Assembly: GCA_977862235.1 (NCBI GenBank)
Contig: OZ374557.1
Location: 1,488,001-1,552,000 of the forward strand
Source: Dudresnaya verticillata
Lineage: Eukaryota
DNA length: 64,000 bases
Reading direction: 5' to 3'
Part shown: piece after piece, positions 3,540-51,907 of the stretch
Layout: each line of letters opens with the position of its first letter
Numbering within the stretch: position 1 is the stretch's first letter
Notes under the pieces: generated by a model
Databases searched by the model: none
The model's input: the letters and a program-made list of their open reading frames with translations, nothing else
What the model was told of the DNA's origin: nothing
Made by a program: the position numbers and the translations under genes

Positions 3540-3905
3540 GAACACTGGTTTCCCGCGTTTCAGAATGTACTTTCAAAAACTGACTGAAATAAAACGCTTC
3601 CAAAGTACGTGCGTTGGGAAGGGGAGCGTCCCATGAGCACGTTGGTGCAAACGGAGTAGAGACCTAAGTAGTAGTTCTCGAGTTATGTTGGTTGGCGTGC
3701 TAACCCGGCAGCGGGTCTGAAATAATTAATTTTGCTGTAATTTCTGAGATTTTTTAATTCGGATTTTTAGGTAACCTAGGCTACTTCCATGGGCCCCTCA
3801 CCGCGCAGTATACGCTGCCCCAACAGTACAGAACTACTCGTCAGTTCAATGCCGCTCTCCCCATGCCATGCAGAGTACTGCAGCACCGCCATGAATTCCT
3901 TTCCG
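3540..3905. repeat. About 370-bp dispersed repeat, probable end of a DNA transposon (copy 1)
   Basis: Closely similar by eye to 43517-43900. Homology starts sharply at GAACAC and interrupts the element A antisense ORF. Confidence 0.8.
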
Positions 3906-7689: not shown

Positions 7690-9438
7690 ATCTCAGCGTG
7701 GGTATTCTGTTAGTCCAAAAAATGCTTTGGAACAATCGAAAGCACATATGTTCAGGAGGAAGCGAGGCGTACAATTGTAATGAATGGGGCAGCTCGGCGG
7801 GCATGTATACGAAGCCTGTTGGAACCCAATTCGAATATGTACTTCTTCAACGCCAGGCCGGTGTGTTACACATCTCTAGAACGGGCATTTGGATTTTCGA
7901 GGGACTTGCAGTCGTCGACGAAAGGGACAAGACAGACCCGAAGGCGAACTGGCCCCGGAAAGAGCTCGCGAGATGCTTCAACAGACTCTCCTGAACTTAT
8001 TGTGCGTTTCTTCGAGAGGTTAGCGGAAGCCACATCTGAAGCAATGCCAGACAGAGATGAGCTCCATCTGCCCTTCTTTCAAAAGCAGGCGGTCTACGAC
8101 GTCTTTGTGCGTGAGATTTCCAAATTATATCGAGGAAAGACGCCGCCCTCTCAGAGCTACTTTTACACTGTTTGGACTACACATTGCGCAAGGATCAAAG
8201 TACGCAAAATCCACCGATTTGCGAAAGGTGCCGAGTACGAGACTGTGAGGGACCAACTTGCCCGCATGACGTCAGGGGGTGCGGACCAGACGGCGACGGA
8301 GGGTTTGAGAGAGCGCCTCAGGCGGCATGTAGAGATGGTAAGGCAAGAGAGAATCAAGTACCGGAAGAAATGCGACATGGCGAAACTCTCGCCGACGCGC
8401 TATTGCTCCATGATTATCGATGGCGCTGATCAGTCAGCTTACGGTCTCCCACACTTCCATGTTCGATCGAAAGCGACAGCAGGCCACGCGCTGGCAGCAA
8501 AATGGATAGGAGTACTGGACCACGGCTGTGCAGACCGATTGTCATTATTAACAATGACTGGCGAGTTCGAATCCGGTGCAAACCATATCGTTGAAGCGTT
8601 GCACCGTGTCTTATCAACCAAATGGGATAGAGGGGAGGTACATGGTACTCTATTTCTTCAAGGAGACAACTGTACACGAGAGAACAAAAATGCGTTCCTA
8701 CTCGCCTACTTGGAGTAGCTCGTGTCGTGGGGTATGCACTGAAGTGCATATGTCCTTCTTGCCAATCGGGCACACACATGCCGATATCGACCAAACATTT
8801 AGTTGCACCTCCACAAGGCTTCGGGTACACGACGCAGTAACCATGCAGGATTTGATGGAGGAACGTCTTCAATCATTCACACCCGAGCCCATAGTGACGC
8901 GCATGCGACACATCGCGAACTGGTCCGGACTCTGCAAACAGGAAAAGTGCATTGGGGGGTTAAGCCTTTCTCCCACTTTCGCTACTTCAAATTGTCCAGA
9001 TCGGAACTGGACTCCGGCTCTACTGCAGCTTATTATAAGACGAAGTGTGAGGTACGAGTGGGCTGCAAGGGTTCGTGGAAGGCGTTGAAAACAAAGGGAC
9101 CTCAACAAGGTTTCTTGCTATTCCCACCCGAATTGGAAAAGACACCTGCCACTTCGATAATCGCCCCTACAGATAAGGACGAAGTAAGCCAGCGCTTATG
9201 CTCAGAGGAGCCACGAATAAATGACTCCGCGAAGCTAAAGGAGTTACAGAAATTGCGCGATGAGGTCTTCCGCGATCGCGAGGAGCCGCTGCATTGGGAC
9301 CTGACAAAGGTATTCGAGAAGAAGGGTGCATATAGAAAGTCGGAGCAAGTTGTCGAAAGCGATGGTGAACTGGGGGAGGATGCAGATAGAGACGCTGAGG
9401 AGGAGGATGACGCAGAGCACGAGACTCATCGTGCTGAC
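7690..9438 (+). pseudogene. Sola-like (DUF7869-type) RNase H-fold DDE/D transposase, disrupted
   Basis: Motifs SMIIDGADQ, LFLQGDNCTRENKN and SFLPIGHTHADIDQTFS across ORFs 7780-8718, 8576-9088 and 8803-9483. Upstream LPFFQK..VY and KVRK..RFAK. One stop and about 2 frameshifts. The acidic ORF 7099-7587 may be its N-terminus. Confidence 0.75.
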
Positions 9439-9572
9439 TACAGGTGTTGCCACTCGATGTACTCCCTTCGGTCTACGAACTAAGCTCTACCACCCCGGTG
9501 CCGTGTGAGATCACCCCTTATTGGGATGGCCTGATCAGCTCTCCTTACAGGTGTGCCTTTCACTTCACCACA
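9439..9572 (+). repeat. 134-bp 3' (U5) end fragment of the family C LTR, ending in CTTCACCACA
   Basis: Matches 57491-57624 and the reverse complement of 58910-59056. Confidence 0.9.
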
Positions 9573-11834
9573 GCCTTCGTTATACCACACCTACCAAGGA
9601 CTCTGCGGAAAGAGAGAGGCATGTCAAGGTGTCCATAACGCGGTGGCGGCGAGCTCAAGTAGATCTGTGTATGCGTGCCTGCCGAGATCTGATCCGGCGT
9701 TGCCGACAGGCCGGGATGCAATTAATTGGATCTCATGGAATTTTTGTACGTGTCGTGCAATGCCAGCTCACCTGGCCACCCTTGCGATTTAGGTGAGACT
9801 TTGTTTCATCTGTATAAACACTGGTCTAGACAAGACGAAAAGTGAAAGCGACACCCTAACACCCTGTCCCATACGCCACAAGCGTGGAAGGCGATGCAAC
9901 GGGCTCTTGGTCAAGGGGAGACCGCGGGACCGTGAGCCAGAAGAGGAGTACGGTACGGGGGGAAAGACAAAGTCCTACTGCGTTCTGCGGTGGTCTCTGG
10001 AGGTCGCGTAGCGACCTCCAGAAAAGGAGCATGACCAAAGATGAAGGACTGCGGGGCACGATGCCAGAGTCCGATCGACACGGTCGTGGGCCGGCTACTG
10101 GCAACCTTGTCCCATTGTGGCGGGCAGTAAACTGACCTCGGGCGCGCGACGCGCGATTATAATGCCGAGTTGCTGCCGTTCTTCCCGTGCGAGCGATTGC
10201 GTTTGCGGAGCGTTAGCGTACGAATCTCTTTACTTTGTACAAGCGCGGATCGTCACAGAGGGCAAAAAAAGCGCGCGCTTCGCCAGCAGACTATCGCTGC
10301 TTCCCGCCAGAGCTCTAGATCGGCTTCCTATTCTCGTTTCCAGCGTCATCTGCGCCTTGCCACAGCGCGCGATGCGCATCAAACCACTCTCGATGACTTC
10401 ATGCAGTAGCGTGGTACTCCACGCTGTAAGTAAATGTGCTCCCATACTGTAATGTGTTTTGTCATACACATCCGATATTTGGATTCTCGCGATAACTGAA
10501 AAGCAACCCTGTCGACCGTCATTATTCATTTGTCGCGAGTTGACTGTAAAAGGGTGCAGACATTTTGGGGACTTCACATGGTAATGTGAAGAGCTTCGCT
10601 ATAAAAGACTTCACAGATTTGGTTCCCGCGGACAAAACTTCTTCAACGGAGTGTCGAGTTCATTAGCGAACGCACGGTACAGGCATGACATTGCTGCAGC
10701 ATGAAAGCTCACTAACCGTACGCGGCCGACTCCAGTTGTGGAAATGATGCAGGCACTCCTTGTCACGACTGATACTTTCGCGGTCCGTCTTCAAAGGAGA
10801 CGGGGAGAGGGCCCCAGTCTGAGTCGACAGTGCCATCCACTACGTTCTCATAGCGGAACTACGTTCCACACAGTCCGGCATGGCATCTTCTCAGCAAGCA
10901 ATTGGTGCATTTGAGGGCCAATCTAACCTGGCTCCCTCATATACTGTGCTTGAAAGACTGGGTTTTTCGCCTCGTAGTACAATGCACAAAGTCTGTGTGA
11001 ACAAACCTGCTTCGATGACAAAGCTAAGGAATTCGGCGAGGGTTGTAGTTCCAGGAACCTAGTTCTGGGCAGTGCATCACAAACCATGGTTCGTTCTTTT
11101 GTGTCCACGCCTTTGTCCTCACGTTTTTCACGAAAAGAACGAGAGAAGTTGGAGTGGTCGCGATGCTTGTGATTCTATTCACTTTAGAACGACCTCACCT
11201 TACAGTCAAAGGAATCGATGAGAAAGGCCTCGAAGACGGCCCACCAGACGCAAAACTCTTCGCGCTCTGGAGCGTCCGCGACGTGCGAGCGAGCGTGCAT
11301 TATCTCTAGGACTGCGTACATGCGGATGTATTCTGTGCGAACGGTGTTCACCACAACTTTTGTTGGATCCCGAACATGTTCAGGATGACAGAACATGTTC
11401 AGGGCGCAGTTGGACGTCGCGCCAGGCTTGGTCTGGGAGTAAAACGGATGACGCGGGAACTGCCCGGGGCGGTGTCACGGGGCAAAGGCGCGCATTGGGT
11501 TAAGAGCAAGGGCACAATGACAAGGGCCTGTTGCTTCCTTCCACCTATATTTTATCATTGACGCCCACACAGCGAGATCTGTACGTTCCTACTGTATTGG
11601 TCGGTCACCATCTGCTACAGTGTGCCAGCCCTGTTGACATGCAGTGAAAGGGGCGCACAAGGGAGCACAATGGTAGCCATTCGAGTTACGTGGAAAATGC
11701 AGTAGCCTGCAAGACCCATCCGCAGGGCTTGTAGGTGCTCCAGGTTTCAGTCCGCGCCGGTTCTGAGCCTGGTCCGGGTTAGGACATACTGCCCCCAAAT
11801 GGGCGAGGTGATCGGACGACCGAAAGCATTGAAC

Positions 11835-13610
11835 TTATTCTGCATCTTCTGCACAGAGGATATCACCATCCAATGCATCTAGAGATTCTGCAGGTAGCAT
11901 GAGAGGAGCGACTCTGGAGCGGATGAAAATCAGAGCACCAATGACAGCGGGAAAGAACATGCTCGTCTTTTTGTTCAACTTGAGAATCCAGAGCGATCCG
12001 AGACAAACCAGCTGTATACAGGTGAAGACGTGCAAATGCAATGCGGGAACATTTCGCATAGGTGCATCGATGGGATACATACTAGGGTCCATGAACAGGT
12101 AAGGTATTCTTGATACAAATCCATTGCCGCTCAACATGTTATGTCCAAGGAAGATGAATAAACCGCTAGTGACCGCCATCGGGATACGTTGGACCAATGG
12201 TAAAAGGAAGAGGGAACACAAAATTGCTGCATATATCACAAATGCTGTCAGGCGATTCTCCTGTACTGACAAAATGACTTCCTTTCCATTTCGGAGCTTC
12301 ACGTCAGCCAGTGCTTGTACATGGGCAAGGGACTGAACCGTGCCAGCGCACATTAGCGGCAAGCCGAAGATTGAGCATACAAAAGTGCAAGCGGCGAGCA
12401 CCAGCATATCGAGGTGGTATCCAGGCCCCTTTCGCAAACGGTGAGCGGGAGAGTTGACGACACGGACTGAGATGTTCTGGTCCAAAAAGAAAAGACAAGT
12501 CAAGAGGAGAGCAGGAACTATTGCAGCGAATCTGACTGACACAGGGGCGTCAAGCAAAGGGACAAGCAGCTTTCGCCCACCCGCAAGGGCGAACGTAGAC
12601 GGGATTGGCAGCCTTTCCAGCCCAATCCGGGCTACCGATGGCAGTGCCGCAACTGTACTCATTACGCTGATAGCAAGGACAGGATCGAAATCTGCGAGCA
12701 CATTACGGGCACTCCTGAAGAGATAACGTGACGAACGCATACCTGTCAAAAACCGAACGAGGTGGTACGTCCCTAATGCCAAACCTAGTGCTGCAAATGG
12801 ACTTGTTTTGTCTGCACCAAACACGCAGAAATCTCCGATGAGAGCGCGACCAGCCTCGTACAGAAACGAGGTCGCGATCAGCGAGTTAAAAATATCGTCT
12901 GTGAACCTTGTGCAGTACTTGATCAGATCGCTAACGTTGGCCACAGAGGATAACAAGAGTACTAGTGCAGTCCATACCCCAACCCAAGCATATGTGCTTA
13001 AGAATGGCACGGCAGCAATTTGACAAAACTCGTAGAGCGCACAGGTAAACGCAAGCGTCAGACCTGTGGGGGCAATGAAAGTCAATGGTTGGCCCGACAG
13101 AGTAGCATATGCCATGCCAGTAGCGCCAGAAGAAAGTAAGAACTCGACAACACCCATGCTGCCGCCAGTTAACGTGAACGTAATGCCTCCGAAAGCAACA
13201 ACCGGAGCCAGGCAAGCAAAGTATAGATATAACACGACAGGGACGGACCTTAGTTTCAGCCCATCCTTCCAATCCGACAGATACCAGGGAATTCGACGTA
13301 CTATATCGGCACGTAAGCCGAGTAACCAGTACATCGGGGCAATTCTGGCCGGCTGCCCTGGTGGTCCTAAGGGCCAGTCATCATCTCCCCGCGCAAGTTC
13401 TGTTGTTTGGCTGCCCGAAGAAACGCATGTCGGCGTGAAATAGAATGGTGCAAATACCCTTGAGAAGCGGGTGGCCGTGCTCAGTCCTGTTGAACGCCGA
13501 AGAAACATCGAGAATGGCGAGCAATGGAGTACTTGTACACGAGTGCCGAACCAGTGTTGAGCCCTCAGCGGGGCGACCGAGACATAGGCGGGTCGGAGTG
13601 GGTAAGACAT
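11835..13610 (-). CDS. SLC4-family anion exchanger (bicarbonate/borate transporter), intronless, with an N-terminal extension
   Basis: 591-aa intact ORF with DIVRRIPWYLSDWKDG, LYLYFACLAPVVAFGG, SGQPL, CTRFTDDIF, LFFLDQNIS, LRKGPGYHLD and VQENRLT, the HCO3_cotransp signature. The exact start Met is uncertain. Confidence 0.93.
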   Translation of the reverse strand: MSYPLRPAYVSVAPLRAQHWFGTRVQVLHCSPFSMFLRRSTGLSTATRFSRVFAPFYFTPTCVSSGSQTTELARGDDDWPLGPPGQPARIAPMYWLLGLRADIVRRIPWYLSDWKDGLKLRSVPVVLYLYFACLAPVVAFGGITFTLTGGSMGVVEFLLSSGATGMAYATLSGQPLTFIAPTGLTLAFTCALYEFCQIAAVPFLSTYAWVGVWTALVLLLSSVANVSDLIKYCTRFTDDIFNSLIATSFLYEAGRALIGDFCVFGADKTSPFAALGLALGTYHLVRFLTGMRSSRYLFRSARNVLADFDPVLAISVMSTVAALPSVARIGLERLPIPSTFALAGGRKLLVPLLDAPVSVRFAAIVPALLLTCLFFLDQNISVRVVNSPAHRLRKGPGYHLDMLVLAACTFVCSIFGLPLMCAGTVQSLAHVQALADVKLRNGKEVILSVQENRLTAFVIYAAILCSLFLLPLVQRIPMAVTSGLFIFLGHNMLSGNGFVSRIPYLFMDPSMYPIDAPMRNVPALHLHVFTCIQLVCLGSLWILKLNKKTSMFFPAVIGALIFIRSRVAPLMLPAESLDALDGDILCAEDAE

Positions 13611-13989
13611 AGCTTGTCGTTTACGATGGGCTTAGTCTTGGCGGAATCCGTTCGAAGCCTCGCTCTGTCACATGAGCAGCTCCAACATTCGCTCGCTATA
13701 AAGCTGCAGCTCAGCTGTTAATAGGCGAGCTCTAGGCCAGCTCCAATCCCTCCAGTTGGTGATAACGAGTCATCGGTCTGGTCCGATTGTCGCGACAGTG
13801 GACTGAGCCCATTTGGGGTCAAGAGCCCAATTCCAGTGGTCCATGGTCCATTTGTAAGCGTTGTCAGGGCCTGAAGGGACACTATGAGGGTGATGCTTGT
13901 CATTCGGCCCTCGCAGCCTCAGGCCGAATGTCCCGAATGTGGGCCAATGGGCCAATATCACGCCGAGAGCTCATGATTGACCCTGAAGA

Positions 13990-14299: not shown

Positions 14300-14687
14300 T
14301 GTCGCGTTGAGCCCTCTTTACAGCAGTGACGCAACGGCCACTGTACGATAGCTTACAGTGGACCGCCGACACCGTCGTCCGACCGCCGCGCGCCCAAGCC
14401 GAAGCCTACTTCAAGCACCCCAGGCGCGCCCGACCGGACCGCACAGGTGCGACGACAGAGACGTATAGTAGCGTAGACGCGAGTCCGCTACGTCAGCTGT
14501 GGAGGACTTCCACCGCCCTTCTCTACGCGCCGTAAACGCTCACTCCGCTCATCCCGCTCGCTCCGCACCCGCGTTTCCTTCGACCTTTGCCCCGCTCACG
14601 CCCCGATCATCGCGCACGGTCCTCGCAGGAGTTCGTTGCAGACTCTCCTGACCGCGCGCGCGTGTGTCTAGTGCTGACCAGACGACA
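14300..14687 (+). repeat. 5' LTR of Copia E
   Basis: About 11 substitutions versus 32652-33039 by eye (about 97% identity). Confidence 0.95.
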
Positions 14688-14793
14688 ATCCGGATTCCTG
14701 GACGCTAGCACGCGCTGATCCGATCGCTCAAGGCAACTCCCAAGTTTGTTACGATCGTAACAACAGTTCAAGTTTCTTCATCTTCCATTCAAG

Positions 14794-15171
14794 ATGCCGC
14801 TCACCCGTGCCCAGATCAAGACGCAGGTCGCATATTTCGTTCGAAGGCTGGAGAAGACGCGCATAAGGAACCCAACGGCTCTAGAACTCATGGACGTAGC
14901 CCGACCTACACTGGACAACTTTGCTCCAGATACTGCTCCGGTAGCCGGATCATCCGAGACGGGTGACTTCGTTGTAGACTCAGCCGCTGTCTCCATGTTC
15001 ATCAAGTACATGATGCGCCCTGTGAATGAACTTTTCACAGACAACTTCTATAAGATGCCAATGTTCCCCATCATGGTATTATATGATGTTGCCGAGCTTT
15101 TTGTAGCAGTATGGGACCGGCCAGAAACAGCAAAGAACAAGAAAAGACAGCTGTCCGATGTCACACGCTAA
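14794..15171 (+). pseudogene. gag: N-terminal part of Copia E gag, cut by the Gypsy B LTR
   Basis: ATG about 105 bp after the 5' LTR. The ORF ends exactly at the B LTR boundary (15171/15172). Confidence 0.55.
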
Positions 15172-15905
15172 TGTGTGGTAGTTCGAGGGAGGTTTGGTAG
15201 AGGCTTGGAAGGAGGCGGGCCCTGATGACCCGAAAGGGGGGTGCGGAAGCACGGCAAAGACCCGGCGCGACCGACTGAGGGAAAGTATAGAGGTTGCGAA
15301 CCGGTATTTAGTAGAGTACTTGTCGTACGATTTCCGGGCCTGTACTGGGCGACCCCTGCAGGCGCGGAGCGTCCGAGCGACCAAAAGGTGGAAACTTCCC
15401 GAACAACTCCGCGGAGTGTTTATTCTGAGGGCGCCGGCTATTCCGGCGCCCATAAGTAGGGCTTGACAGCCAAAAAGTCTATCAGCCCGAAAGGGGGTCT
15501 AAGTTAGTCTATGATTATAGTTACGTAGGTTAGTACAGTCAGTACAAGTCAAAAAGTGGGAATGCATTCCAGTTAGGGGACTTGGTGGTGGATACGCCGG
15601 TGGTCAAGCCGAGGTCCCGGCTGCACTGTCGATACCCTGAGCGCAGGGGTGCTCCTCGTTCATGAGTAGGAGCGCAGCGGCGCGTCATAAATCAGCCAAT
15701 ACGAGGCGTCCAACTGGCATCATTACAATGCCATGTGTACGCCACGTGTACAGCTGTAGGGCCACGTGTACACACGTGTATCCCACGTGTCGTCCACTTG
15801 TACAGCGATGAAAGGATAGCTGTCCTGATTAAGGGACAGTCTGTCCCGCGAAAAGAAGTGTGCTCCCGTAAGCCCTTCTGCTGACAGCGTCCATGCTGCC
15901 ACACA
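15172..15905 (-). repeat. 3' LTR of Gypsy B (734 bp)
   Basis: Terminal inverted repeat TGTGTGG...CCACACA. Preceded on the minus strand by PPT AGAGGGGGGC (15906-15915). Confidence 0.85.
15743..15790. promoter_or_regulatory. Cluster of four G-box (CACGTGT) motifs in the U3 of LTR B
   Basis: CACGTG at 15743, 15763, 15773 and 15784. Confidence 0.55.
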
Positions 15906-16155
15906 GCCCCCCTCTGAGGACCGAAGCGGCCCGCGAGGCTATGATTGGCGGTTTCTGAATCTTAAATCTCCTTCGTGAGCGGTTGAGCGCCCAACGGCTG
16001 TCTGCGTATCACGCCCTGTGGGGGATTAAGTCGGGCCGGCGGCCGCACAGGCCCGAGTTACATGCGTGTCATCGCGGGCCATCACCTCAGTGTTCGGGCA
16101 CGCCCGTCTCAACGTCGGCGGCTCTTGAGCGTTGCGGCTCACGAGTTTGCACGAG

Positions 16156-16186
16156 CCAATTTTGGCGCGGCTGCACGGCTATATAA
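16156..16186 (+). promoter_or_regulatory. Candidate CCAAT + TATATAA promoter for the antisense ORF of B
   Basis: CCAAT at 16156 and TATATAA at 16180, on the ORF strand about 530 bp before its ATG. Confidence 0.35.
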
Positions 16187-16714
16187 GCAGAGGGTTGGAA
16201 CCCGATTACGACTTCTCACGTCTCGGCATCGACAGCCCGCAGCAACTCAACGCTCTTCAACAGGGCTCACCGCGCTACGCCCGTCGGCATCCTTCTCTTT
16301 CCTCCTTCATCTTGCTTGCCCGCGGCCGTCGCCTTGCGCCATCAACACCGACGCTGTCCGTGCGTCGCTGCCATCTCACAGCGGGAGGCGTGCTCGCCCT
16401 TTTCATCCAGACGTCAGGCGTAGCGGCAATTCCGCGAGGGACTTCGGAGCGGCGCTCACCCAACTGCGCACCTGCCTTCGCAACCGGCCGCTATCTCCGG
16501 CGTACTCGCTCACTTCGTCCCAACTCCCTGTCGGCGCGGACAGGTTTCACGGTGTTGCTACACCCTCAAGAATTTCAGGCAGAAGGACGTCAAGTCTCAG
16601 GATCAAGCTCTTCAGGTCGAAGTTCAGGTAGAAGACCGGAAGGTTCAGGTAGAAGACCTCAGGAAGAAGTTATTCATCTCCGCGGCGCTCCGCTTCACGA
16701 CTCCTGCGGCCCGT

Positions 16715-19042
16715 ATGGCGACTTCTCCCAACCTCCCGTATGGGCAGGCGGGCTCTAGCTTGGCCGTCCTCGGGTTTGGTGTCGATGCGGCAGGCGTGCC
16801 TTTGCCCATCACGAAGAGCCGTGACTGGCTACTCCGAACGGACTTAACCCACATTCGGGTCGCCGCCGGTGCGCGTCGCGAAGACATCCGCCGTTATGGC
16901 CGTCATCGTGCCCAAGCCCGTTCATGGGAGTTCCTCATGCGTGAGCGGATTGGAATCCTGCGAGGGACCAATATCGCGCTTCCGCCGCTCCCGAACGACC
17001 ATTACTGGGACCTGGCCATGGTGCGCTTCCTTTTTGAGCAACGCAACGTGGAGCACCACTCTCAAGCTTTCATGGAGTTCATGCCGGAGCTTGTCTCGTT
17101 CCACGCGAAGGGAGGCTACCGCCTGGAGTTGGTCGCTTTTGAACGGCCACTCATCCGCCACGGTCGGGATAACTATCCATTCACGATGGCACGCATTACG
17201 CGGTGGGACGAGACGTCCAACTTCAAGTACGCGTTGGATAACCCACAGACAGCGATGTCTCGCGAACTCCTTCGCTTCGAGCGTCGCCATCGTCATCGGA
17301 CCGGTTGCTTCGTGCCGGCGCACTGTCAAGAAGTGGTGGCCATTAAGCCCGAGTTCTGCACGGGGAAGTACGTCCCAATCCCCACGGATCATCGGGAGTA
17401 CGAAGTCTCATACTCGATGCCTGTTGGCACACCCCCAGTCGTGGCGTATAGAGGCCTTGATATGATGCACGAAAGCTATCATCATGGCCTCTTGTGGATG
17501 ATCTTCCGTAACGAATGGGTGGTGATGGTGGCGCAGACCTTCATGTATGAAGCCCGTCGGGGGTACTTGTATTACATCAACGCACGTCTGCGCACCGAGA
17601 TCCGGGGACTTGGAATTGGCTTACTCAATACGACTGCTGTCGATGCTACGGACTTGGAGGCGCTCCTCGTGTTTGTCGAACGCATTCGTTGGAGTCGTGT
17701 GAGCAAGCGCAACCGCTACCTTCCGGAGAACACCGGGTTTGTGACGCCGGTGTACGACCGTGGTGACTGGGTAAACTTCGACCCGGTGCAGTGGCACCCT
17801 CTCCTACCGGAGTATCTGCTGCAGCCGCAACCTCAAGATGGTGAGACGCTTCTCGTGGACAGCGGTGAGCGCATGACCGGCTATACGAAAGATTGGCAGA
17901 GTGCCTCCGGCGAGGCTCCCGTGACTCCTGCTGACGTGCCGCCGATGGACACTACAGTGTCGGGACAGCCCCAGGGTCCATACGCACCCAGAGTGCGAAA
18001 CGTCGCGAGGGCCGATGCCGCAATTCGGGACTTGTTCAACCGTCGAGGTCTCGCCATCCGCTTGGCTGTCCATTGGGAGGTGACCCATCTGACTCTCTAC
18101 AGTCTCGCGGATTGGGTCGAAGACGTCCTTTGCGACTTCGAGTCGAACTGGGTGAGCTCACCGGGGCCCATCGAGACGTTGAAGGCGTCGTTAGCCGTGC
18201 TTCCGCCTATCGGGCCGCAGGCCGTGGTGGAGTCGGAGCAAGCTCAGGAAGCCCCGACGAGTGTCGTGGCGCCAGCCCCTTCGGCAGCGGCGAGCGCGCC
18301 GAGTGTGTCGGGGTCAGCAGTGGTAGGCCCTTCAGCAGCGGCGGGCGCGCCGAGTGCCTCAGCTTCCGCCTCCGCGTCGAGAGATCCGCGACTTGCGCGC
18401 CGTTCCCGTCTGGGTTTGGGTCATCAAGGCCGCGCTAGCTTGCTACCAAGTACGGGTGCTCCCGTGGCACCAGCCGGTGGTGGGCAGGGCGCGGATCCGC
18501 GCGAGGGCACGCTTGCCGATACATCCGCTGTTCCGCGCGAGGGTTCTTCCGTCGCTACCTCGGGTCCGCCTACCAATGCTCCAGCTGCTGCAGGTTCGCA
18601 GCTAGCAGTAGGGGCCGTTCAGGAGAGCGCTCCGACTTCTTCACCCATGGAGGTAACCGTCGACCTACCCGTGCCAGAAGTTCCCGCGGGCCATGCTTTA
18701 CAGCTCGAAGTGACCCTTCCTACTAGCGCCGTCGAGGCTCCTCCGGCGGTGGCTGAGCCGCAAGAGGTTATTGTGAAGACGGAGCTGCTGCTCAAGGAGG
18801 AGCTCGAGGAAGAGGACATGGGTGTCCAGGAGGGTGACGCGCCGTCTGGCGATGGAGGTGTTGGGCCTAGCGAGGCGGGTGGTGAAGTTCCGGCGCGGGG
18901 AGTCGGGGCTCGGCGCGGCCTTGGTCGTCGCATCGTGCGCGAGGTCCGTCGCGTGACCATGATGCCAGGGCAAGGCCCCGTTGCGAATCCGCCGTTGCGC
19001 CCGAACGAGGTCATCGACCTGATGGACTCAGACTCGGACTGA
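16715..19042 (+). CDS. Intact 775-aa antisense accessory protein of Gypsy B (unknown family)
   Basis: Uninterrupted ORF between the PPT and the pol stop, antisense to pol. It has an aromatic-rich globular half and an Ala/Pro/Ser/Glu-rich tail ending EVIDLMDSDSD. Confidence 0.85.
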   Translation: MATSPNLPYGQAGSSLAVLGFGVDAAGVPLPITKSRDWLLRTDLTHIRVAAGARREDIRRYGRHRAQARSWEFLMRERIGILRGTNIALPPLPNDHYWDLAMVRFLFEQRNVEHHSQAFMEFMPELVSFHAKGGYRLELVAFERPLIRHGRDNYPFTMARITRWDETSNFKYALDNPQTAMSRELLRFERRHRHRTGCFVPAHCQEVVAIKPEFCTGKYVPIPTDHREYEVSYSMPVGTPPVVAYRGLDMMHESYHHGLLWMIFRNEWVVMVAQTFMYEARRGYLYYINARLRTEIRGLGIGLLNTTAVDATDLEALLVFVERIRWSRVSKRNRYLPENTGFVTPVYDRGDWVNFDPVQWHPLLPEYLLQPQPQDGETLLVDSGERMTGYTKDWQSASGEAPVTPADVPPMDTTVSGQPQGPYAPRVRNVARADAAIRDLFNRRGLAIRLAVHWEVTHLTLYSLADWVEDVLCDFESNWVSSPGPIETLKASLAVLPPIGPQAVVESEQAQEAPTSVVAPAPSAAASAPSVSGSAVVGPSAAAGAPSASASASASRDPRLARRSRLGLGHQGRASLLPSTGAPVAPAGGGQGADPREGTLADTSAVPREGSSVATSGPPTNAPAAAGSQLAVGAVQESAPTSSPMEVTVDLPVPEVPAGHALQLEVTLPTSAVEAPPAVAEPQEVIVKTELLLKEELEEEDMGVQEGDAPSGDGGVGPSEAGGEVPARGVGARRGLGRRIVREVRRVTMMPGQGPVANPPLRPNEVIDLMDSDSD

Positions 19043-19567
19043 CGTCCTTTCCACTTTATTGAGCTCGCATCGGACGCTCCCTAGGGATAATAGATAGGTG
19101 TGAGTGGGGGAGCGCCCGATTAGCTAGTGGACCTTTCCGCGTTGTAACGCCTGAGTAAACTTTGCATTGACCGAGTACCCTTCTCCTCCCGCGCGGTGGC
19201 ATACCATCCTCGCTCTGACTTAGCGTGGAGACCATCGCGTGTCCTTGACCGGGGGAATTTTCCCATAAATTAGAGTACAGTGCGGACTGTAGAGTGCAAA
19301 AAATTAATGTTAAGCGGCGCTCCGCGCGGTCATTGGTGCGGGGCTTCGCGGCGTGCGTTTGGTGGCGGCACCGGAAAGGTAAACCGCCATGATTGGCTGT
19401 GTCTTTTGGCAGAAGCTCCACCAAGAGGCGTTCGCCGTGAGCCCGAGCCAGGGAAGCGTCGCAGCCACTGATGGCTCTTGTTTAAGTTAGCCGCTGTACA
19501 GCGTAGTTTCGTTTGTATACATATGTAAGGTGTTGTGGTGCCAATCGGCCTCACACCTATTCATTTC

Positions 19568-19722
19568 AGCTCCGCAGAGCGCATCTATCCAGGCTTCTGC
19601 CAGCTTTCATCTATCCACATCCGCTCGTCCAGCATCTATCCAATTTTAGCTCCGTAGAGCGCATCTATCCAGGCTTCTGCCAGTATACATCTATCCACAT
19701 CAGCTCGTCAGGGCGCATCTCA
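19568..19722. repeat. About 79-bp tandem duplication with an internal CATCTATCCA motif
   Basis: AGCTCCG(C/T)AGAGCGCATCTATCCAGGCTTCTGCCAG occurs twice; CATCTATCCA occurs five times. Confidence 0.85.
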
Positions 19723-19803
19723 GGGCTTCGCGCCCTGTTTCCTTAGCTCGGCTCGCTAGCCCACACATCAGTAGGGCAACAGCCTTAGGGGTAGTAACCC
19801 ACC

Positions 19804-22800
19804 TTATGATTCGTAGGGTATTCCCTTGGCGCGGTGGTAGCGTGCTACGAGATTATGGGGAAGATTTCCCCTTGGCTCCCACGTGTCCTTGGTGGCAGGG
19901 GCCTGATACCAACGTATCCGATATAGATGTTCCAGCGGGGCATAGTCAACAATGCGATCATATTCATGCTCTCGAGCCGAGGTTTTGCGTAAGCGGGAGA
20001 AAGAGTGCGGAGGCTCGATTGGAGGAAGAGGAGGCTCGACGCCACGACTGGCCAAGGTAGACCCGGGCGCAGGCGGCGCGACTATTGTGGGAGTCTCCCC
20101 TTGGGCGTCCAACGATTCGTGCGGCGTGGGCGCCCGCGTTACGCGATCCAGCGAGATTGTCTCGCGTTCACCCTTCACGTCTATCACGACCACATGAGTG
20201 CTTCGCTCAACAACCTTATACGGGCCCAGTGCCTTTGGTAGCAGTTTGCCTTCGCGTGCCACGCCGTCAGCGTCTTTGAGCTTTGTCTCTCGCTGGACAA
20301 ACACCCACTGTCCGGGTCGTATCTTCTCATTGGCGGGACGCATCCTGTTATTGAAGTTCACTTCATAGCGCTTCTGCACCAGGCGTAGGCGAGGGAGTGC
20401 CGTCTCTACTAACGTTTCGAGCCGGCGAGTTAAACGCTTCTTGACATTGGTAGCAGGCACGTTTGCCACATCGACTGTCTCGGCGCGCTCCATTAGGAGG
20501 GAGTTAGGAGGGTTCGACAGAACGAGATCTACAGGGGCGAACCCAGTTGCCTTGTGGACAGTCGTGTTATAGGCGTATGTCAACGCGGGGGTAAACGCAT
20601 CCCAATCAGTCTGATCCTCAGCGATGAAGTGACGTAATCCAGCCAGAAGAGTGCGGTTGAAGCGTTCAGTTTGCCCGTTCGACTGGGAGTGGTAAGTTGA
20701 CGTAAATAGATTGCGGATCCGCAGAATGCTACACACTTCCATAAAGAACTTCGATGCAAATTGGGACCCATTTTCCGAGAGTAGATATCGTGGTGGTCCA
20801 TACACGTAGACCCAATGGTCACAAAAGGCTTTCGCCACTGTATAGGCCGTGATGGTCTTCAAATGGACCGCCCTGGTAAGCTTAGAGAAGCGATCAGTAA
20901 TAACGAGTAGGTACTCATTACCTTTGCCTGAACGGGGAAGCGGGCCCAATATGTCAATGCCGACGAATTCGAGAGGCATAGTTGCCGGGAATAACTTCAT
21001 AAACGAAGTTTGCTTCCGCAGTTGTACTCTCTCCCTGGAACAGGTCACGCAGTTGCGTACAGTTGCATAAACCGCTAATGCCATGTCTGGCCAATATACT
21101 TGACGTTGCAGATTTTGATACATGCGCGTGCCGCCTGGGTGTCCGGCCATTACGGGGTAATGAGCGAGGTGAAATACTCGCTCTTGTAGCGTTTCGGGTA
21201 TGAGCACCTGCCGTGCGCCATCAATAGGTGCTTTCCGGACAAGCAGTACCAACTCGTCTTCTAGGTAACAACCGGGTCTACCACCCTCGATCCCCGCTCT
21301 AATCCGCAGGCAGAAGGGATCTGTTTTCTGTTCCCGGAGGAGCTCCTCAATAGTCAAGAGTGACAGAGATTTCTCATCCACATCCTTCTCGGCGGTCGCC
21401 ACTAAGAGTTCGTCTGCAGACGTAGGCTCGTCGAAGGGTTCGATCTCCCACGCTTCGATTGGACTATCAGACCAAAAGGGGGGGTGTTTTTCCCAGTGGT
21501 GTCATCCTCGATAATATAGCAAGGGACGTCCAGATCCGGTTCGCGGCTCGTATAGCCAAACGTAGGAAGGCGTGAGACAGCGTCTGCTATTTGGTTCTTC
21601 TTACGCTTCTTGTATTGGACTGTAAAGTCGTACTCGAGTAAGCGTAAGCGCCATCTCGCTAGGCGTCCCGACGCGTCGGTCATACTCATAATCCACTTCA
21701 GTGCTTGATGATCTGTGTAAAATTCGAAATGTGTTCGCTCCAAGTATGGACGTAATATCTGCACGGCCCATACGACGGCGAGGCATTATTTCTCTCCGAC
21801 GGAGTAGTTCTTCTCAGCGGGTGTCATCCGTCGACTCCAGAAACCAATGGGATGTCTTTCCCCCTATCGTTCATCTGCATGAGTGCATAACCTACTTGAT
21901 ATTCACAAGCGTCAGTGTCGACCGAGAGATTACTTCCCAGCTTTGGCAGTTGTAGGATAGGTGGGGCGATCAGCGCGCGTTTCAACAGCTCGAAAGCTTC
22001 CGTTTCGCTTTTGCCGAAGGCGGTAGATCAAACTCCACATCTTTCTGTAGAAAGGCATTGAGAGGTGCGGCGACTCGCGCGAAATTCGGGACGAACCGTC
22101 GGTAGACATTACATAATCCAAGAAATGATCTCAGTTGCGTCTGCGTTCGTGGTTCTGTAAACCCCTCTATCGCTTGAGTGTTCTTGGTCGCAACCACTAG
22201 GAGACCGGGGCGAATCACATGTCCGAGATAGTCGACACTCTTAGTAGAGAAGTTACACTTCCGCAGTTTCAGCGAGACGCCAGCATCCTTCAGGATAGTG
22301 AGTATCTCCCTTACGTGGGTAAGGTGTCCGTCGACGTTCTTCGAAAAGATAATTATATCGTCTAGGTAGACCAAAGAGGTTTTCCACCTGAAGCCTGAAA
22401 GCAGGATATCGATTGTACGCTGAAACGTCGCGGGGGCGTTACACAGCCCGAATGGCATTCGGTTGAACTGGAAGCTTCCCGCATGACATGTGAACGCAGT
22501 CTTGTGTTGGTCCTGTGGACATACTGGGATCTGCCAATATCCTGAATTACAATCCAGAGTCGTAAACAGCTGGGCGTCGCCCAAGGAATCGAGACATTCG
22601 TCCATTCGTGGAAGTGGATAGGAATCCTCAATGGTGATGGCGTTCAGCCTGCGGTAGTCCACGCAAAAGCGTAACGAGCCGTCGGGATTTTTGACCAAGA
22701 CCACGGGGCGTGCATACTCCGAACGGGCGGGCTCTATAACGCCTTCACGAAGCATCTTCTCCACTTCCTCTTGTTCCGCCTGTCTGGCCTTTGGACCAGC

Positions 22801-24060
22801 GCGGTACGGTTGGGTAAACACGGGTGTCGACCCTTCCTTGAGTTCTATACGGTGTTCCGTTACCTTAATCGTTCCGAGTTGACCACTCCACATAGGGGCG
22901 AATGGCTTAAGCATCTTGCGAACGCGCTTTTGATCCTCGACCTGTAGGTGTGTTAAGTCCAAATCGTCTATTGTTTTCGCTTTCACCGCTTCCGTCACGC
23001 CGGGCGTCGTTGACGACTGTTGTATCGCAGCAGCAAGCCCTGCCCCCCCACATTGGAGAAAGACTCGGAATGCGAGGCCGTGTCGGGCGCAAGAGACGGG
23101 GCGTTCCCAAAGGACAAAGCGTACACCGGCGTGCTAGAAGGCGCGGGTATCGCGCGGCCAAGTCGTTGGCGCTTCGTGAGCTGTTGCGGCTTTCGCGAAA
23201 AATTCGCTACCTTGACATGGAACAGGCGGTTCGGAGCGATCTCGGTGATGCCGTTGGACAGGACGATTCCTTGTGTCTTGTATAAAGGTTGGAATGCATC
23301 CATGAAGTGTGTACCCTGGGCTGGGCATGTAACCGCAACCCAGGTTTCCGATTCCGGGGGTAGTAGAATAGCGTGAGCGACGCGGATATGCCGCTGCACG
23401 GGGCGAGGAGGTATCTCCGTAGTTTCGGTTGGTCTGTCGGGACGTAGTGGACCACATTGGCGTCTTAGAATGGGGTGTTGCGACCCGTCACGGAGTATCA
23501 CCGTTTGGTTGCGCACGCGCAGCGTGTCGACGTGATTATCGATAAAGGTACATCCGAGAATCATGTCGACCGCTAGCGCGTGTGCAACAACAAATGGTTG
23601 ACGTACTGTGTAATGTCCAATCCGGACCAGGAGAGAAATACTTCCAAGGGTAGTTAGTTTGTGCCGGCTGGTCGACACTAAATTACAGATTGGTCGTGAA
23701 GTCGACACCTTCTTCAATTCTGCCTTCGACAGGACATCAGCTCTGATGAGGTTCGGACCTGCTCCAGAGTCCAGTACGGATAATACGCGAGTGCGTTTTT
23801 CAGTGGAAGTCCCGACGGCCTCAGCCACTTTATAATTGTAGCGTGACAGCGCGCATACGGGATTCCTACAATACTCTTCGAACGTACGCCCTGGAGGGAG
23901 GCCAATCGGGCGAGCTAATACCTGCTTGGGTAGAACCAGAGGTGTCTCGACATCCGACCGTTCCGATGAACCGGGAGTTGGCAAAGCGCCAAGCGGGTTG
24001 CTACCCTCATTTTTCGGATGATCGGGGGGCTCCGGGGTGGAACCCCAGTCCCCCTAGCTA
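19804..24060 (-). pseudogene. pol: Gypsy B pol: protease, RT, RNase H, integrase, chromodomain (several frameshifts)
   Basis: LDSGAGPNLI (PR), RFCVDYRRLN and YLDDII (RT), YTDHQAL (RH), GHPGG..C..C and DILGP (INT), GPY, YRIRWY..DTWEP (chromo). Confidence 0.95.
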
Positions 24061-26417
24061 GTTTTTCGGCTGTGAGCCGGGCTTGCTAGCCGGGGAATGT
24101 GTTAAAGGGGGTGGTGGAGGAAAGGGGCGTCCGCCCATGCGAGGTGATCTGGGAGAGTGAGACCGCGGCCATTGATCGGGTGGTTCAATCCCGCCTTGAA
24201 ATTCACTTGGCGATTTTTCTGGAACTGATTTCCCGGCCTTCCGGCGTTGTCTGGCCCTGTCCAGGTTGGAGGAGGAGACTCCTTGGCGAAATTCGGGAGA
24301 TGGCCTACGACGGCGAGCCAGTCCTTTTGTTGCCGCGACAGCGCATAGAAATTCTGGCGCATCAGCGTGGCAAATTCCAAATCGTCCGTACGACCTAAAT
24401 GCGGGCAGTTGGGCTTCTTGTGGCCCACATCAAAGCACTCAAAGCAAATATCGTTCGGGAGATCATCGACTGTTACCCATCCGGGGCGCTGTTCCTTGGA
24501 TGGCTGTGCCCATGCGGGGAGCCTTGGATTTTGGTTAGACAGAACCGCATGAACTGCTTCATAACGGCTTCTGCCCTCACTAGGCTCTCCGGACCATGTA
24601 TCCGTCGGTAACACCGAGGACGGGCCCGCGTCGCGTTCGAATGCAGCAACTGCCTGCCCGTTGGCATCTGAGTCACGACTCGAAGAGTCATTATCCGAAT
24701 AGGGGTGGGATGTTACTCGAGCGACCGGCTGCCCTTGTCGAACCAGCAGAGTTCTGCTCGACTTGCCAGGGACGGCGCGTGTCGTCAACTTCTTACGGGG
24801 CAGCATCCCGGAGGACTTCTCCTTCCTTCGACTGGCTCCGAAAAGCGCGCGGTGGCAATCACTTTGGGCGGTGGCTAGCTCCACGTAATCCGCGAGTCGG
24901 GCCGTCGCCGGGTCCAGTGAGGTGGTACTCAGCAATGGCTTGACAGCGGGTAGAAACCCTCGGATGAACCGTGTTATGAGGTCCTGCTCCGATTACACTC
25001 CTGCGACTCTTCGCGCGTTATTCTGGAGCCTCCTTGAGAATGATACCTCATCCTCGTCGGGCTCCTGGGACATGCGGTCCATTTCGGCAGCTATGCGTTC
25101 GATGTACACGTCCTTCGCGAAGCTTCGCAGTAAGTAGTTCACTGCCTCCGGCCATTCGGCGAATCCCCCAATATCGTCGCCCGCGACGTCGAAGTTCGCC
25201 TCGAAGAGATCTTTGGCGTCCTTCTCGAGAAACTCCGGTATCACTAGGATCGCGGCTCCTTCACTGACATGCGCTTGGTCTAATTGACGCTTTAGCGTGG
25301 CTAGAAAGCCGATTATCGATACCGGGTCACTACCATCAAAGCGTCGACTGCGCATCACGGACTTGATCCGCTTAATCTTTCGGGACGTCGATTCCGTTAC
25401 CTCGGGTCCCCGGTACGGGTCAAGGTTTAACAACCGGTATCGTCGATACGAAAGCACGTTAGCGAACGCTGGATTCCGTGGTACCAACGCCTTTAGGCCT
25501 GACCGGCGTGGTCCTATCCAAGAGGACCTTGGCTGGCTTCGGGAGTCCGCTCCGAATGCACCCTCCGGCTCGGCGTCACGATGCGAGGACTGCCGTTGCT
25601 GGTTGTCCACTTGTCGGCCATGCGGCGTTACGGGTCGCGACCGATAATCTCGTGACGGGGAGCCGTCCCGGTATCCACTTCGACTTCGTCCCATACATGG
25701 GTTATCGCCATGTCTGGTACTGCAGAGGCACTGACTGTGCGTGTCCGGCTGTCTAGGAGGATACCTCTCTTCGCGATGGTACAGGTCGTCACCCCTTCTT
25801 CCATCCCGATGCGGCGAAAGTCGGCGTCGGTCGCGTGTCCCTCGTGGGACAGGAGACCGACGTCTCTGGATTTCAGGGGATTCATCCCGTTCACGCATCA
25901 GTCGCCTGACACGAGCATCCAAAGTCGCGACTCTTCTCCTTTCTTCATCGAGTTCCTTACGGAGGAGCTCGATGGCTTCATTCTGTTCGGCGCACCGCGC
26001 GCCGTCTGCGTTATGATCAACGCCTCTAAATGCCACAAGGGCGTCGTTCCTCGACTGGCCAACTTCTCGGGAAAGCATTCCCACAGTGTCGTGGACTTCC
26101 TCGACACGCTCGACCAGCGAATTAACTCGAACGCGAAGCGTCGCGAGTCCTTCCTCTTGCGGGATGCCGGGGTTTCCAAGAAGAATTCGGGACGTTATCT
26201 CCTCTTGACATCTGGTCAGCACTTCTTCATTCTGGCGAACGGCCGACTCATCGATATATCGTTTGATTCTTGAGATTGACTCGTCCACCTGGACTTCTAA
26301 AGCTGCTGCCAGCTCAGGACCGACTGTCCGTTCTATTCCATCTTGGATCATCCTTCCGATTTCTCGTTCAGTGAAGCACCGTTCGGCGGAAGAATTGGCC
26401 TTCGACCGGATAGGCAT
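24058..26417 (-). pseudogene. gag: Gypsy B gag with coiled coil and CCHC zinc knuckle
   Basis: ORFs 24993-26417 and 24102-24935 are separated by one in-frame stop. Contains FDGSDP and CFECFDVGHKKPNC. The original end is probably ...SQPKN* at 24058. Confidence 0.88.
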
Positions 26418-26420
26418 CCC

Positions 26421-27933
26421 TCAATTAGCTTCCAACGTGGCCACAATCGAGTTCGATGAAGACCCATCCTTCCCCATCTCAGAGGCTGATTTCGGTGTTG
26501 CAACGTCCGGAAGGAACCCAATGCACGCACTCACCCAACCCCATAGTTCACTATCGACGGGTATTGGACTTGGAAGACCATCCCCAGGCAGACATGCCCA
26601 ATCTGTCGTAGGCCAGAATGGATTCAATACTTTCCGTGACCGTCAACAGCCTACCAACCCTGATCATCACAATGTTGCTGAGAATCAGCAGTACCGTCGC
26701 GCTCAGAGCGATCCAAGGGATGATTCAAGGAAGGCCAATTACGTCCAACAGATGTTTAAGGAATCCAAGTTCGATGGTGACTTGTCCCAGGACATTAACC
26801 TTGCCCTGCAGTTATACGCAGTATGCGCAAAGCAGCATCACCTCTCCCAGTCACAGAGGGCGGACTACCTTGTACACATCTTCGATGGACCTGCCCACAA
26901 GTTTTTCTTCGAGAATACCAGGGACGGCATGACATACCAGGAGAAGGTCCAGATCATGTTCAAAGAATATCTTTCCGACGCTCACCAGCTGCAGGTCAAG
27001 GGAATCGTAGAAACTATCCACCTAAGGTCGTTCATGGAGGAACGTTATCTCACTGATGTCTCCACTGGCTTAACACAACTTGTTTCGAAGCTCAACGAGC
27101 TAGTTCCCCAGTGCTCCAGAGACTTCCGCAGCGACTCCATGAAGATCGACTATCTCCGTCGCGCCGTCGCCGAGTTTCAAGATTGGGCACGTATCCCAAT
27201 TCATAACATCGTCTCTCAAATCTATACATTCAACGCGTTTGTGACTGCTCTGCATGAGTCAATCCAGACACTCCGACAGATTCAGGTTCTCTCGAATAAC
27301 CCCGCATCAACTTCCCTCACCGTCCTGGCCCTCACGGACCCAGGTCTCAGCAATAAGCTTTACATCGAGACTAACCTCACCCAATACGGCCGTAATCCGC
27401 GCAAGCTATCCCAAGGTGGACGCGGAAATGGCCGCCCCACCGCCCCGATACGACCACATCACGGTAACCGCCACAACGGACAGAATGGATTTCGCTATTT
27501 CTCCGACGCTCGTCGACGCAACGAGTGCTTTCGATGTGGAGCTCCAAATTGGACCCAAGCCATCGCTGTAACAAAGGAGCTATCCTCTCGCATGCCAGGC
27601 AGCGCATTTAAAAAGGATAATCCGCTGCGTACATCCGTCGCAGAACTCGCCCGCGAGCTGGAAGAAGACGTGACCATCGAAGAAGAAGTTACAAATGGAA
27701 ACCCCATTCATTTTCTAGGAGAACAACACGCCCGAGTAGAACACGACCTCCAGCTGTTTGACACCGCACTCATCAACGTTGAGGATACGGAAGAGACTGA
27801 CACTGGATATGTTCAGCCTATAGAAGCAGTGGAACACAGCATCTACGCTTCTCACATCGCTTCATCACTAGCCCCGGATGCCACACAAGAAACAGAGCTA
27901 CCCTTGGTTTTTCGACCGGGCGACAAGAATTAA
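26421..27933 (+). pseudogene. gag: Remainder of Copia E gag
   Basis: KFDGDLSQD...L..Y (gag capsid-like) and CFRCGAPNW (degenerate knuckle). It resumes directly after the start of B gag. Confidence 0.8.
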
Positions 27934-27951
27934 AGCCCGGACCTTGTCGCC
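27906..27951 (+). other. Putative -1 ribosomal frameshift signal of Copia E
   Basis: G_GTT_TTT in the gag frame, followed by CCGGGC/GCCCGG and GGCGACAAG/CTTGTCGCC pairings. The -1 frame is open into the protease ORF. Confidence 0.7.
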
Positions 27952-30900: not shown

Positions 30901-31136
30901 TCATCTGCAAAGGTTCACGCACTTCCGAGAAGCGCATGATGCTAGATATAGCAGCTGCTCGAGAGGGTTTCCGTGACAAAGTCATATCAGATATTGGATT
31001 TTTCCGAAGTTCCGACAACATAGCAGATGGATTGACTAAGATGATGACCCAAGCAACCCTGCGCAACTTTGTGGTCTCAGGCTTCCTTCGTGTCCAGCCC
31101 GAACAGTGTATTGTGCGTTCCGAGCATCAGACATGA
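27912..31136 (+). pseudogene. pol: Copia E pol: protease, integrase, RT, RNase H (premature stops)
   Basis: FCVDIGAP (PR), LHRQFFH..C..C and LTDQGSQF (INT), KARYVIGGH, LLKPLYGL and YVDD (RT), FSDSSFAN, TDSKSLFD and ADGLTK (RH). Stops at 29390 and 30332. Confidence 0.95.
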
Positions 31137-31163
31137 AGTACTGTACATTTCTTCATCCAATAC

Positions 31164-32472
31164 CTACAGAAGCTCGAATATCTCTGCTACAAACAAGTTA
31201 TTACAACCCCGCCCCACACACATACGCAAGCTTTCCGAGCTCAAGCGCAGCGGGCAACGTTCCACAGAATCGAGTAACACCTTCCTGAATGCATCTACAA
31301 CCACACAGGGATCGACCCGATGACCGACATCCTGCATCAGGCGCACCAAGTACACCCCGGCACAAATATCCGCAATGATGCGGAAAGCTTGCTCGTACTT
31401 TCCTCTTTGGATTTCCTTCCTTTCCTTGGGACGCTGAAAGCGCAGCTTCAATCCCATCTTGTTAATAACAGGTCCCGCCTGACTGAGGTTGTGAAGATGC
31501 TTCACCTCCTTCGACCACACCTTACAAGCTTTTGACACACCCTCGTCAACTCGCAGCAGACCAATAGCATTGATGACTGCGGCAGGGACACAGTCAAACC
31601 CAGCAGTACCGGCACGGCGGCCCCTGCAGGAGGGCAGCCTGTACGGTTGCAAGGCCGAGTTCACATCCCGGGCACCAGGCCCCCCCCATCATCACAGCAA
31701 CACCGGGATACCTTCGACAAAATCCCATAATTGCGCCACGCACCACATGCTCACGGCCGCTTTTCGTTTGCGTCCTCGTGTTCACCGGTGCCGGTATTAC
31801 ACATGCCCGCGGTACCACTTTTTGCTGCGACAGTACCTCCCTGGTTGCGTACACAACACTACACGCCATGCACAACTCGACCGAGAACGAGAAGGGGTCA
31901 ATTTCGTGGTATCCATCGACACCAGCCACATTGCTGGGTGCACCATACCATGTTCCAGGCTTGAGTGTCTTGCCATACATGCTGAGACCGGTTCCCAAGA
32001 GAACCGCATCGAATTGCCAATCTGCAGTCTCCTTGCTGTGCATGCCAGCATCACCCGAAATTTCTTCTTCACTTCCAGTATCTGAACCTGTTGATGACCT
32101 TTCCTCACTTGCCTCAATAGCCTCATCGTCGATGAGGGAATGGCGCACGGCAGTGTGCCTACTGTGGGGAATTGACACGCGCTTCAGCCGTGCACGCTTA
32201 CAATCAAGTGGGTAGCCTATTGCGTGTGGAGCAGAACGCTTACGCACTACCGCGCTGCCGCCTGTTGAACGGTCCGGATCACTGGTAACCGCACCATCAG
32301 CTGGAACAGAACATAGCGATAGGATGGAGGCGGCGTCCCCGATGGAATCAGTTGAGCCGTCAATCCTCACCAAAGATCCACCAGCATCGGCACGTATCCC
32401 AGACACCGGCGTAAAAGGCCCCACCATCGAGGCAAATGCGCACGTGTGCGGAAAAGGCGCGCAAGAGTGCAC
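31164..32472 (-). pseudogene. Antisense accessory ORF of Copia E; C-terminal part papain/C39-peptidase-like
   Basis: Overlapping ORFs 31594-32472 and 31164-31664 (frameshift). Motifs FDCVPAAVINAI and GVYLVRL...GHRVDPCVVVDAFRKVLLDS. Confidence 0.5.
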
Positions 32473-42753: not shown

Positions 42754-42790
42754 TACTCACTAGGACTCCGCCCTAGCAAGTATGGGGCCA

Positions 42791-51896: not shown

Positions 51897-51907
51897 TTCG
51901 TAATACC

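Follow-up and report, generated by a model that had tools for sequence, protein, structure and literature searches.

A family of large antisense proteins carried by chromodomain Gypsy retrotransposons of red algae

Antisense reading frames between pol and the 3' LTR have been described for the LTR retrotransposons Grande, RIRE2, Retand, PvRetro13 and Boty, and the available text of the sources gives their function as unknown (PMC7264820, PMC11963269, PMC6317226). The frames of the Retand/Tat group, termed aORF-3R or eORF-3'R (gene23 of maize Grande, and those of rice RIRE2 and Silene Retand), resemble the genes considered here in slot, orientation and the length of the region between pol and LTR, as far as the accessible parts of these papers go (PMC7264820, PMC11963269, PMC6317226). 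The resemblance extends, on the same partial basis, to short family-specific tandem repeats, a likely promoter of their own and a proposed nuclear role, the product of Grande GENE23 being described as nuclear and its gene as having its own promoter in the available text (PMC7264820). Retand is, however, a non-chromovirus without a chromodomain, whereas the integrases of the elements called B, C and D here bear one, chromodomains having arisen more than once in Gypsy according to the accessible part of another source (PMC12477816). The plant frames, moreover, are split into 314 groups in the part of that study available (PMC6317226), whereas here elements that differ greatly from one another share one homologous family. 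The brtn gene of Boty-like Gypsy elements in Botrytis and Sclerotinia also lies antisense behind pol in a non-plant Gypsy, as described in the text at hand (PMC7264820).

Transposon-borne accessory proteins beside short repeats, with a proposed action on their own element, are a further point of likeness: VANC of the VANDAL elements is an anti-silencing factor, and the accessory genes of red-algal Plavaka elements (PAG1-3) lie beside tandem arrays, as reported in the accessible text (10.1101/2025.02.11.637652). The carriers of VANC and the PAG genes are DNA transposons, whereas the carrier here is an LTR retrotransposon. HBZ, a small bZIP protein made by the retrovirus HTLV-1, is encoded by an antisense gene adjoining the 3' LTR, as is the ORF of element C described below, although no sequence relation to the present family was seen. 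Most antisense ORFs known from LTR retrotransposons are small, change fast or are confined to one lineage.

The window analysed here, a 64-kb stretch of DNA from Dudresnaya verticillata, contains four chromodomain Gypsy elements (A to D), three of which carry a member of the family (Table 1). ORFs B and C lie on the + strand with the integrase genes opposite them on the - strand, and each sits between the chromodomain integrase and a polypurine tract (PPT) followed by TG, as an earlier note on this DNA had placed them. The wider statement of that note, a long antisense ORF downstream of pol in all three elements, holds for B and C, which are open, and fails for A, where the slot opposite gag-pol holds the frameshifted pieces of a split pseudogene. 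The longest open frame is 872 codons in the B region and 952 in the C region, against at most 330 and 356, respectively, in 200 base shuffles per region, and neither ORF needs an intron. The B frame stays open for 97 further codons upstream of its ATG (16424-16714, +), including a coiled-coil-like stretch made of 12-bp repeats, and the N-terminus of ORF B is possibly longer or spliced. In C, the PPT directly precedes the ATG, the start codon is 15 bp from the 3' LTR, and an AATAAA follows the stop codon by 22 bp.

Table 1. Coordinates of the antisense genes, their carrier elements and associated features in the window.
Feature	Position	Strand	Remarks
Integrase remnant of A	1-1296	+	25-residue chromodomain stub
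Broken family member of A	1700-3540	-	at least 3 frame changes; N-terminus cut off by repeat at 3540
Repeat of ~400 bp	3540-3939	.	second copy 43517-43934 (86%); one at each cut end
N-terminal gene piece	43277-43516	+	frameshifted; profile iE 1.5e-4, also E 4.5e-4; complements A's piece
Copia host around B	14300-33039	+	LTRs 14300-14687 and 32652-33039 (97%); TSD GAAAA; RVT_2; gag-pol about 26500-31136
Inferred 3' LTR of B	15172-15906	-	present once; terminal inverted repeat of 10 bp (one mismatch); adjoins PPT and end of host's ORF
Polypurine tract of B	15907-15920	-	
TATA-like box	16180-16186	+	535 bp upstream of ORF B
ORF B, intact antisense accessory gene	16715-19042	+	775 aa counted from first ATG; profile iE 5e-83 (B itself in profile)
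Conserved Trp/Arg/Glu-rich core domain of ORF B	16766-17950	+	predicted mostly helical
C-terminal SUMO-interaction-like motif of B	19007-19039	+	V-I-D-L, then acidic/Ser run
Two ~80-bp repeats, B	19554-19709	.	between ORF B stop and end of pol
pol of B	19804-24053	-	protease, RT, RNase H, integrase, chromodomain; several frameshifts
gag-like ORF of B	24102-26420	-	one in-frame stop; abuts Copia gag, no 5' LTR
Element D	45920-50160		chromodomain on integrase; pol nearly intact
3' LTR of C	51908-52393	-	cut by LTR of element D; partner 5' LTR 59056-59596 (93% identical)
Polypurine tract of C	52394-52407	-	
ORF C, intact antisense accessory gene	52409-55267	+	952 aa
Two ~85-bp repeats, C	55450-55614	.	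between ORF C stop and end of pol
Integrase-chromodomain of C	55650-57524	-	two in-frame stops

The carriers of the two intact genes differ in state of preservation and share no LTR sequence, blastn at word size 7 giving no match between the LTRs of B and C, which had been called unrelated. All three carriers had also been described as chromodomain elements: this is borne out for C (Pfam Chromo, E 6.8e-11), B matches at E 1.4e-3, below the curated cut-off, and A retains only the 25-residue remnant behind a stop. B has the complete Gypsy domain order, PR-RT-RH-IN with a C-terminal chromodomain, has lost its 5' LTR and keeps one inferred 3' LTR; its gag-like ORF, without a Pfam match, is putatively gag by position and a CCHC-type knuckle. 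The LTR pair at 14300-14687 and 32652-33039 was considered as B's own and rejected, since the GAAAA target duplication, a + strand PPT and the Copia genes inside assign it to the + strand Copia element into which B is inserted. That host has a 294-codon antisense frame of its own between RNase H and PPT (31594-32478, -), which gives no Pfam match and falls outside the accessory-gene family, and just inside its 5' LTR a 125-codon ORF (14794-15171, +), which may be the start of an upstream Copia gene, stops exactly at the B insertion point. Element C is without a gag or RT of its own; an RT at 57612-58253 was rejected as C's, since it derives from the family of element D, to which it is 89% identical. 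Inverted repeats of ~140 bp inside C bound a segment (57490-59056) that holds an 800-bp piece of D-family RT, and a third copy of the inverted repeat lies at 9438-9573.

Short family-specific repeats adjoin the gene in B and C and sit upstream of the A piece, those beside B and beside C showing no common motif. The B repeats contain five exact copies of a 10-mer within 116 bp, and 7 matches with one mismatch occur in the window against 2.9 expected; the repeats are a candidate binding site, and the TATA-like box of B is likewise a candidate internal antisense promoter.

That the three proteins align, as had been proposed by eye, is confirmed for every pair by local alignment scores that none of 300 shuffles reached (B-A 117 against 36±5, B-C 95 against 50±7, C-A 56 against 37±4). 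Alignments of the tails alone are no better than chance, the score being reached by 121 of 300 shuffles for B-A3, 45 for C-A3 and 145 for C-A2. The motifs quoted in the earlier note are present, but in A VKVPP..EW and GDWIWFNP sit in different frames and do not belong to one ORF. Relatives from outside the window connect the three members further in tblastn searches with the window as database: one (P0003) matches A, B and C at 1.7e-30, 3.8e-17 and 6.8e-6, and another (P0068) matches C at 5.9e-41 and B at 8.8e-5. The A, B and C members are thus firmly established as homologues. Between B and C, identity at codon positions 1, 2 and 3 is 0.37, 0.48 and 0.28, the third being near random and the first and second not, a measure that is not dN/dS and that comes from an alignment made on protein, which favours such a pattern. 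The integrases of the three carriers are only ~37-43% identical, and the divergence of the ORFs exceeds theirs.

A profile built from the three cores and searched against 1.84 billion 50%-identity representatives matched 531 proteins at E<=0.001, of which the stricter cut-offs of 1e-10 and 1e-30 left 190 and 9, and the sequence-level results that follow rest on the best 150 of the 531. Family proteins are 500-950 aa long, with a median core identity of ~26%, taken over the 88 sequences out of 153 whose core is nearly complete. At D99, R104, E108, E189, R193, E230, Y245 and W261 (B numbering), 92-97% of the sequences that reach the column have the same residue, E206, E267 and D351 are also near-invariant, and no conserved Cys occurs in the core alignment. 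The view of the earlier note that this is an old, selected accessory gene gains from these relatives, from the many positions conserved at 85-97% despite such low median identity, from the codon-position pattern and from the confident fold described below. The domain had gone unrecognised in that note, and no Pfam, PHROGs or NCBIfam assignment explains the members: Pfam gave no match for the B, C and A frames (E<=0.05) and only one sub-threshold coiled-coil match in 57 of the best 150 relatives (E<=0.01), and PHROGs and NCBIfam gave none for 12 members. Within those Pfam searches, Retand TRP28 (Transposase_28, PF04195), PMD (PF10536), Athila ORF1, VANC/MAIN-type families, methylase, SET and oxygenase were all without a match in the three frames or the 57 relatives. 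An Atlas row with PMD at 11% scored 0.78, which is chance level.

Organism names were attached to 3 of the 30 clusters looked up, all of them 'hypothetical protein' entries of Gracilariopsis chorda. This alga has 14 loci in three sets of 5, 4 and 5 at >=90% identity, with locus tags scattered from BWQ96_00829 to _10872 on different scaffolds; because the copies are near-identical and dispersed, their pattern appears transposon-like. No single-copy, host-like member was found among the named matches. Linkage of the family to pol was seen in the three elements of the window; none of the 120 listed integrase matches is from G. chorda, the named neighbours of the window integrases being from Chondrus crispus and Agarophyton chilense, which makes a florideophyte red alga the likely host. 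A FastTree phylogeny built on 102 integrase cores out of 125, with 23 left out for their shortness, A retained at 78 residues and no reference chromoviruses in the set, places A, B, C and D in one clade with the sequences of these algae (support 0.92), within which C falls in one subclade (0.90) and A, B and D in the other (0.91). As the carriers are spread over both subclades, the accessory gene likely predates their split and D likely lost it.

The predicted structure of ORF B is one compact, mostly helical domain of ~390 residues followed by a disordered tail. In the AlphaFold2 model of residues 18-427 (150 rows), which is mostly helical, pLDDT is 84 and pTM 0.86, the five models agree within 2.2 points, and a sub-core reaches a pLDDT of 88 and a pTM of 0.88; the fold is predicted to extend to about residue 410, beyond which lies a disordered Ala/Pro/acidic tail. 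Cores across the family contain 4% Trp, 4% Tyr and 11% Arg, and tails are rich in Ala, Pro, Ser and Gly. The arginines may be structural, since the core is Arg-rich yet neutral in net charge, which averages +1 over 70 cores and spans -11 to +12. Two tail patterns, one resembling SUMO-interaction (SIM) motifs, with which ORF B ends, and one resembling nuclear-localisation (NLS) motifs, are over-represented in 40 representative tails, albeit picked after seeing the sequences and among five patterns tried: the SIM-like pattern occurs in 9 (shuffles 2.0±1.3) and the basic NLS-like pattern in 15 (shuffles 6.0±2.1), with none of 300 shuffles reaching either count. C shows no match to the SIM-like pattern; its C-terminus carries the basic motif KRxR, and in two close relatives a basic motif with KR likewise closes the protein. 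A 37-residue two-helix motif occurs in 42 of 117 tails, many of them redundant cluster members, while neither B nor C gave a match; its matches to HeH (E 0.17) and Ish1 (E 0.21) are sub-threshold and found in 1 of 14 members each, with no such PDB match. In a chance locus (L001:98-841, +), an unrelated phage-like ORF has an RNase H-fold-like look.

The remains of the third gene lie in two places. The N-terminal piece covers profile positions 6-43 and the A piece position 44 onward, and because the two junctions share 6 of 8 bases, the pieces appear to come from one gene that a DNA transposon interrupted and an inversion then separated, the ~400-bp repeats likely being the two ends of that transposon. 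A frameshifted transposase-like gene with DUF7869 (7714-9483, +; E 3e-11) may represent the internal part of the transposon that ends at 3540-3939. Element E, a young non-chromodomain Gypsy element (37347-43276, +) with LTRs 98.6% identical and a 4-bp target duplication, sits in the first codons of the N-terminal piece, and a PPT with a D-like LTR lies ~1.4 kb upstream on the opposite strand. This LTR is 77-88% identical to D's (33328-35981, -, and 51060-51909, +), yet the integrases of A and D are only ~37% identical; an LTR swap, a chimeric D or a piece that is not A's would each fit. Elements D and E gave no accessory-family match in the profile search of the window. The element nest also encloses an apparently intronless host gene for an SLC4-type bicarbonate transporter (11835-13631, -; PF00955, E 3e-129), and a 429-codon frame without a Pfam match lies at 60783-62072 (+).

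The ORFs are best read as a real accessory gene of a red-algal chromodomain Gypsy lineage; tentatively, and with somewhat less than even confidence, we propose that the protein binds chromatin in the nucleus and sustains expression of its own element. The gene would have its own mRNA, from the internal antisense promoter in B or from the 3' LTR in C, and the protein could then be produced at times when the sense strand is not transcribed; an antisense gene suits an element-reopening factor because its own promoter can be on with the LTR off. The basic tail motifs would convey nuclear import, the core would recognise element DNA or chromatin, perhaps at the short repeats beside the gene, and the tail would engage SUMO-modified host silencing proteins and thereby relieve repression. 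Of the roles suggested in the earlier note, anti-silencing, copy control and targeting, none is singled out by these results; a nuclear, chromatin-side location gains some support from the tail, as the NLS- and SIM-like motifs point to chromatin, and the repeats beside the gene recall the VANC and PAG3 layouts. Counting against the proposal are the neutral net charge of the Arg-rich core, the minority of members with the tail motifs, C being without a SIM-like match, the lack of a common motif in the repeats beside B and C, and the position of D, nested in the same integrase clade and without the gene, although action in trans would render the gene dispensable for any one copy.

A helper in the replication cycle, binding element RNA or the pre-integration complex and aiding export, packaging, nuclear entry or integrase tethering in the manner of Rev/Vpr-type factors, is a less probable but still serious alternative. 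It would suit the Arg/Trp-rich folded core and the NLS-like tails and, in the accessible text of one source, has been proposed for antisense ORFs in general (PMC7264820); however, the antisense orientation uncouples the gene from gag-pol expression, D keeps a nearly intact pol without it, and the integrase already bears a chromodomain. Rather unlikely is self-restraint, in which the protein, perhaps with the antisense RNA, would damp its own element as HBZ does for HTLV-1 and be retained for a lower cost to the host. The HBZ-like closeness of the C start codon to the 3' LTR agrees with this, SIM-like motifs fit the recruitment of repressors as well as blocking them, and ORFs B and C are intact against ~7 lesions in their pol genes (P 0.014; with A included, 3 against 11, P 0.036), a test that is ascertainment-biased, as long ORFs drew the attention, and that counts lesions by hand. 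This imbalance weakly hints at selection in defective master copies or at host-level retention; master copies that are non-autonomous but keep the gene would also account for it, and the ORFs stop 380-760 bp before pol is reached, a gap that overlapping transcripts would have to bridge.

More doubtful again is a core with enzymatic activity on DNA, RNA or chromatin, such as the removal of a silencing mark. In its favour, D99, E108, E189, E206, E230, E267, D351, R104 and R193 are near-invariant in a 390-residue domain, and methylase and oxygenase accessory genes are reported from red-algal DNA transposons in the available text (10.1101/2025.02.11.637652), but neither a His/Cys metal set nor a nucleotide-binding motif is conserved in the core alignment, and the acidic residues, matched in number by conserved arginines, may be engaged in salt bridges. 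That the gene is mobile cargo without a special role in Gypsy, moving between red-algal transposons (possibly as Plavaka PAG1) or captured from a host, is improbable: PAG genes are reported to move among transposon families, and PAG1 has no known domain, in the part of that source available (10.1101/2025.02.11.637652), yet the same slot and orientation recur in three elements of both main subclades, the divergence of the ORFs, deeper than that of the integrases, is expected under long co-descent, and the named matches include no host-like single copy. An Env-like or movement protein for cell-to-cell spread can be given hardly any credence, since, although env lies in the same slot between pol and LTR, the gene is antisense, the tails are NLS-like, and a hydrophobic segment is lacking, the Kyte-Doolittle (KD) value of 1.9 for a membrane helix being reached by 2 of 67 proteins and the top hydrophobic 19-mer scoring 1.44 in B and 1.18 in C.

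A bolder form of the chromatin-factor reading is somewhat less probable still: a lineage-wide third gene older than the main subclades, with a new fold, encoding a dedicated anti-silencing factor or a SUMO-coupled chromatin-modifying enzyme, a retrotransposon counterpart of VANC assembled from unrelated parts. If true, it would offer a handle on transposon silencing in red seaweeds.

The layout of these genes is already known, and what is apparently undescribed is the large, well-folded protein family. An antisense ORF in red-algal Gypsy elements was not found described in the literature covered, which took in neither Repbase Reports nor the genome papers of Chondrus and G. chorda nor the majority of subscription journals, and a prior note in Repbase is possible. 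Being large, conserved across deeply diverged elements, confidently folded and equipped with near-invariant residues, the family is amenable to structure solution and mutation. At least 14 'hypothetical proteins' of G. chorda are likely transposon genes. Red seaweed chromatin is described as unexplored in the accessible text of a recent study (10.1101/2025.02.11.637652), and the family would supply the first transposon-encoded probe of silencing in these algae.
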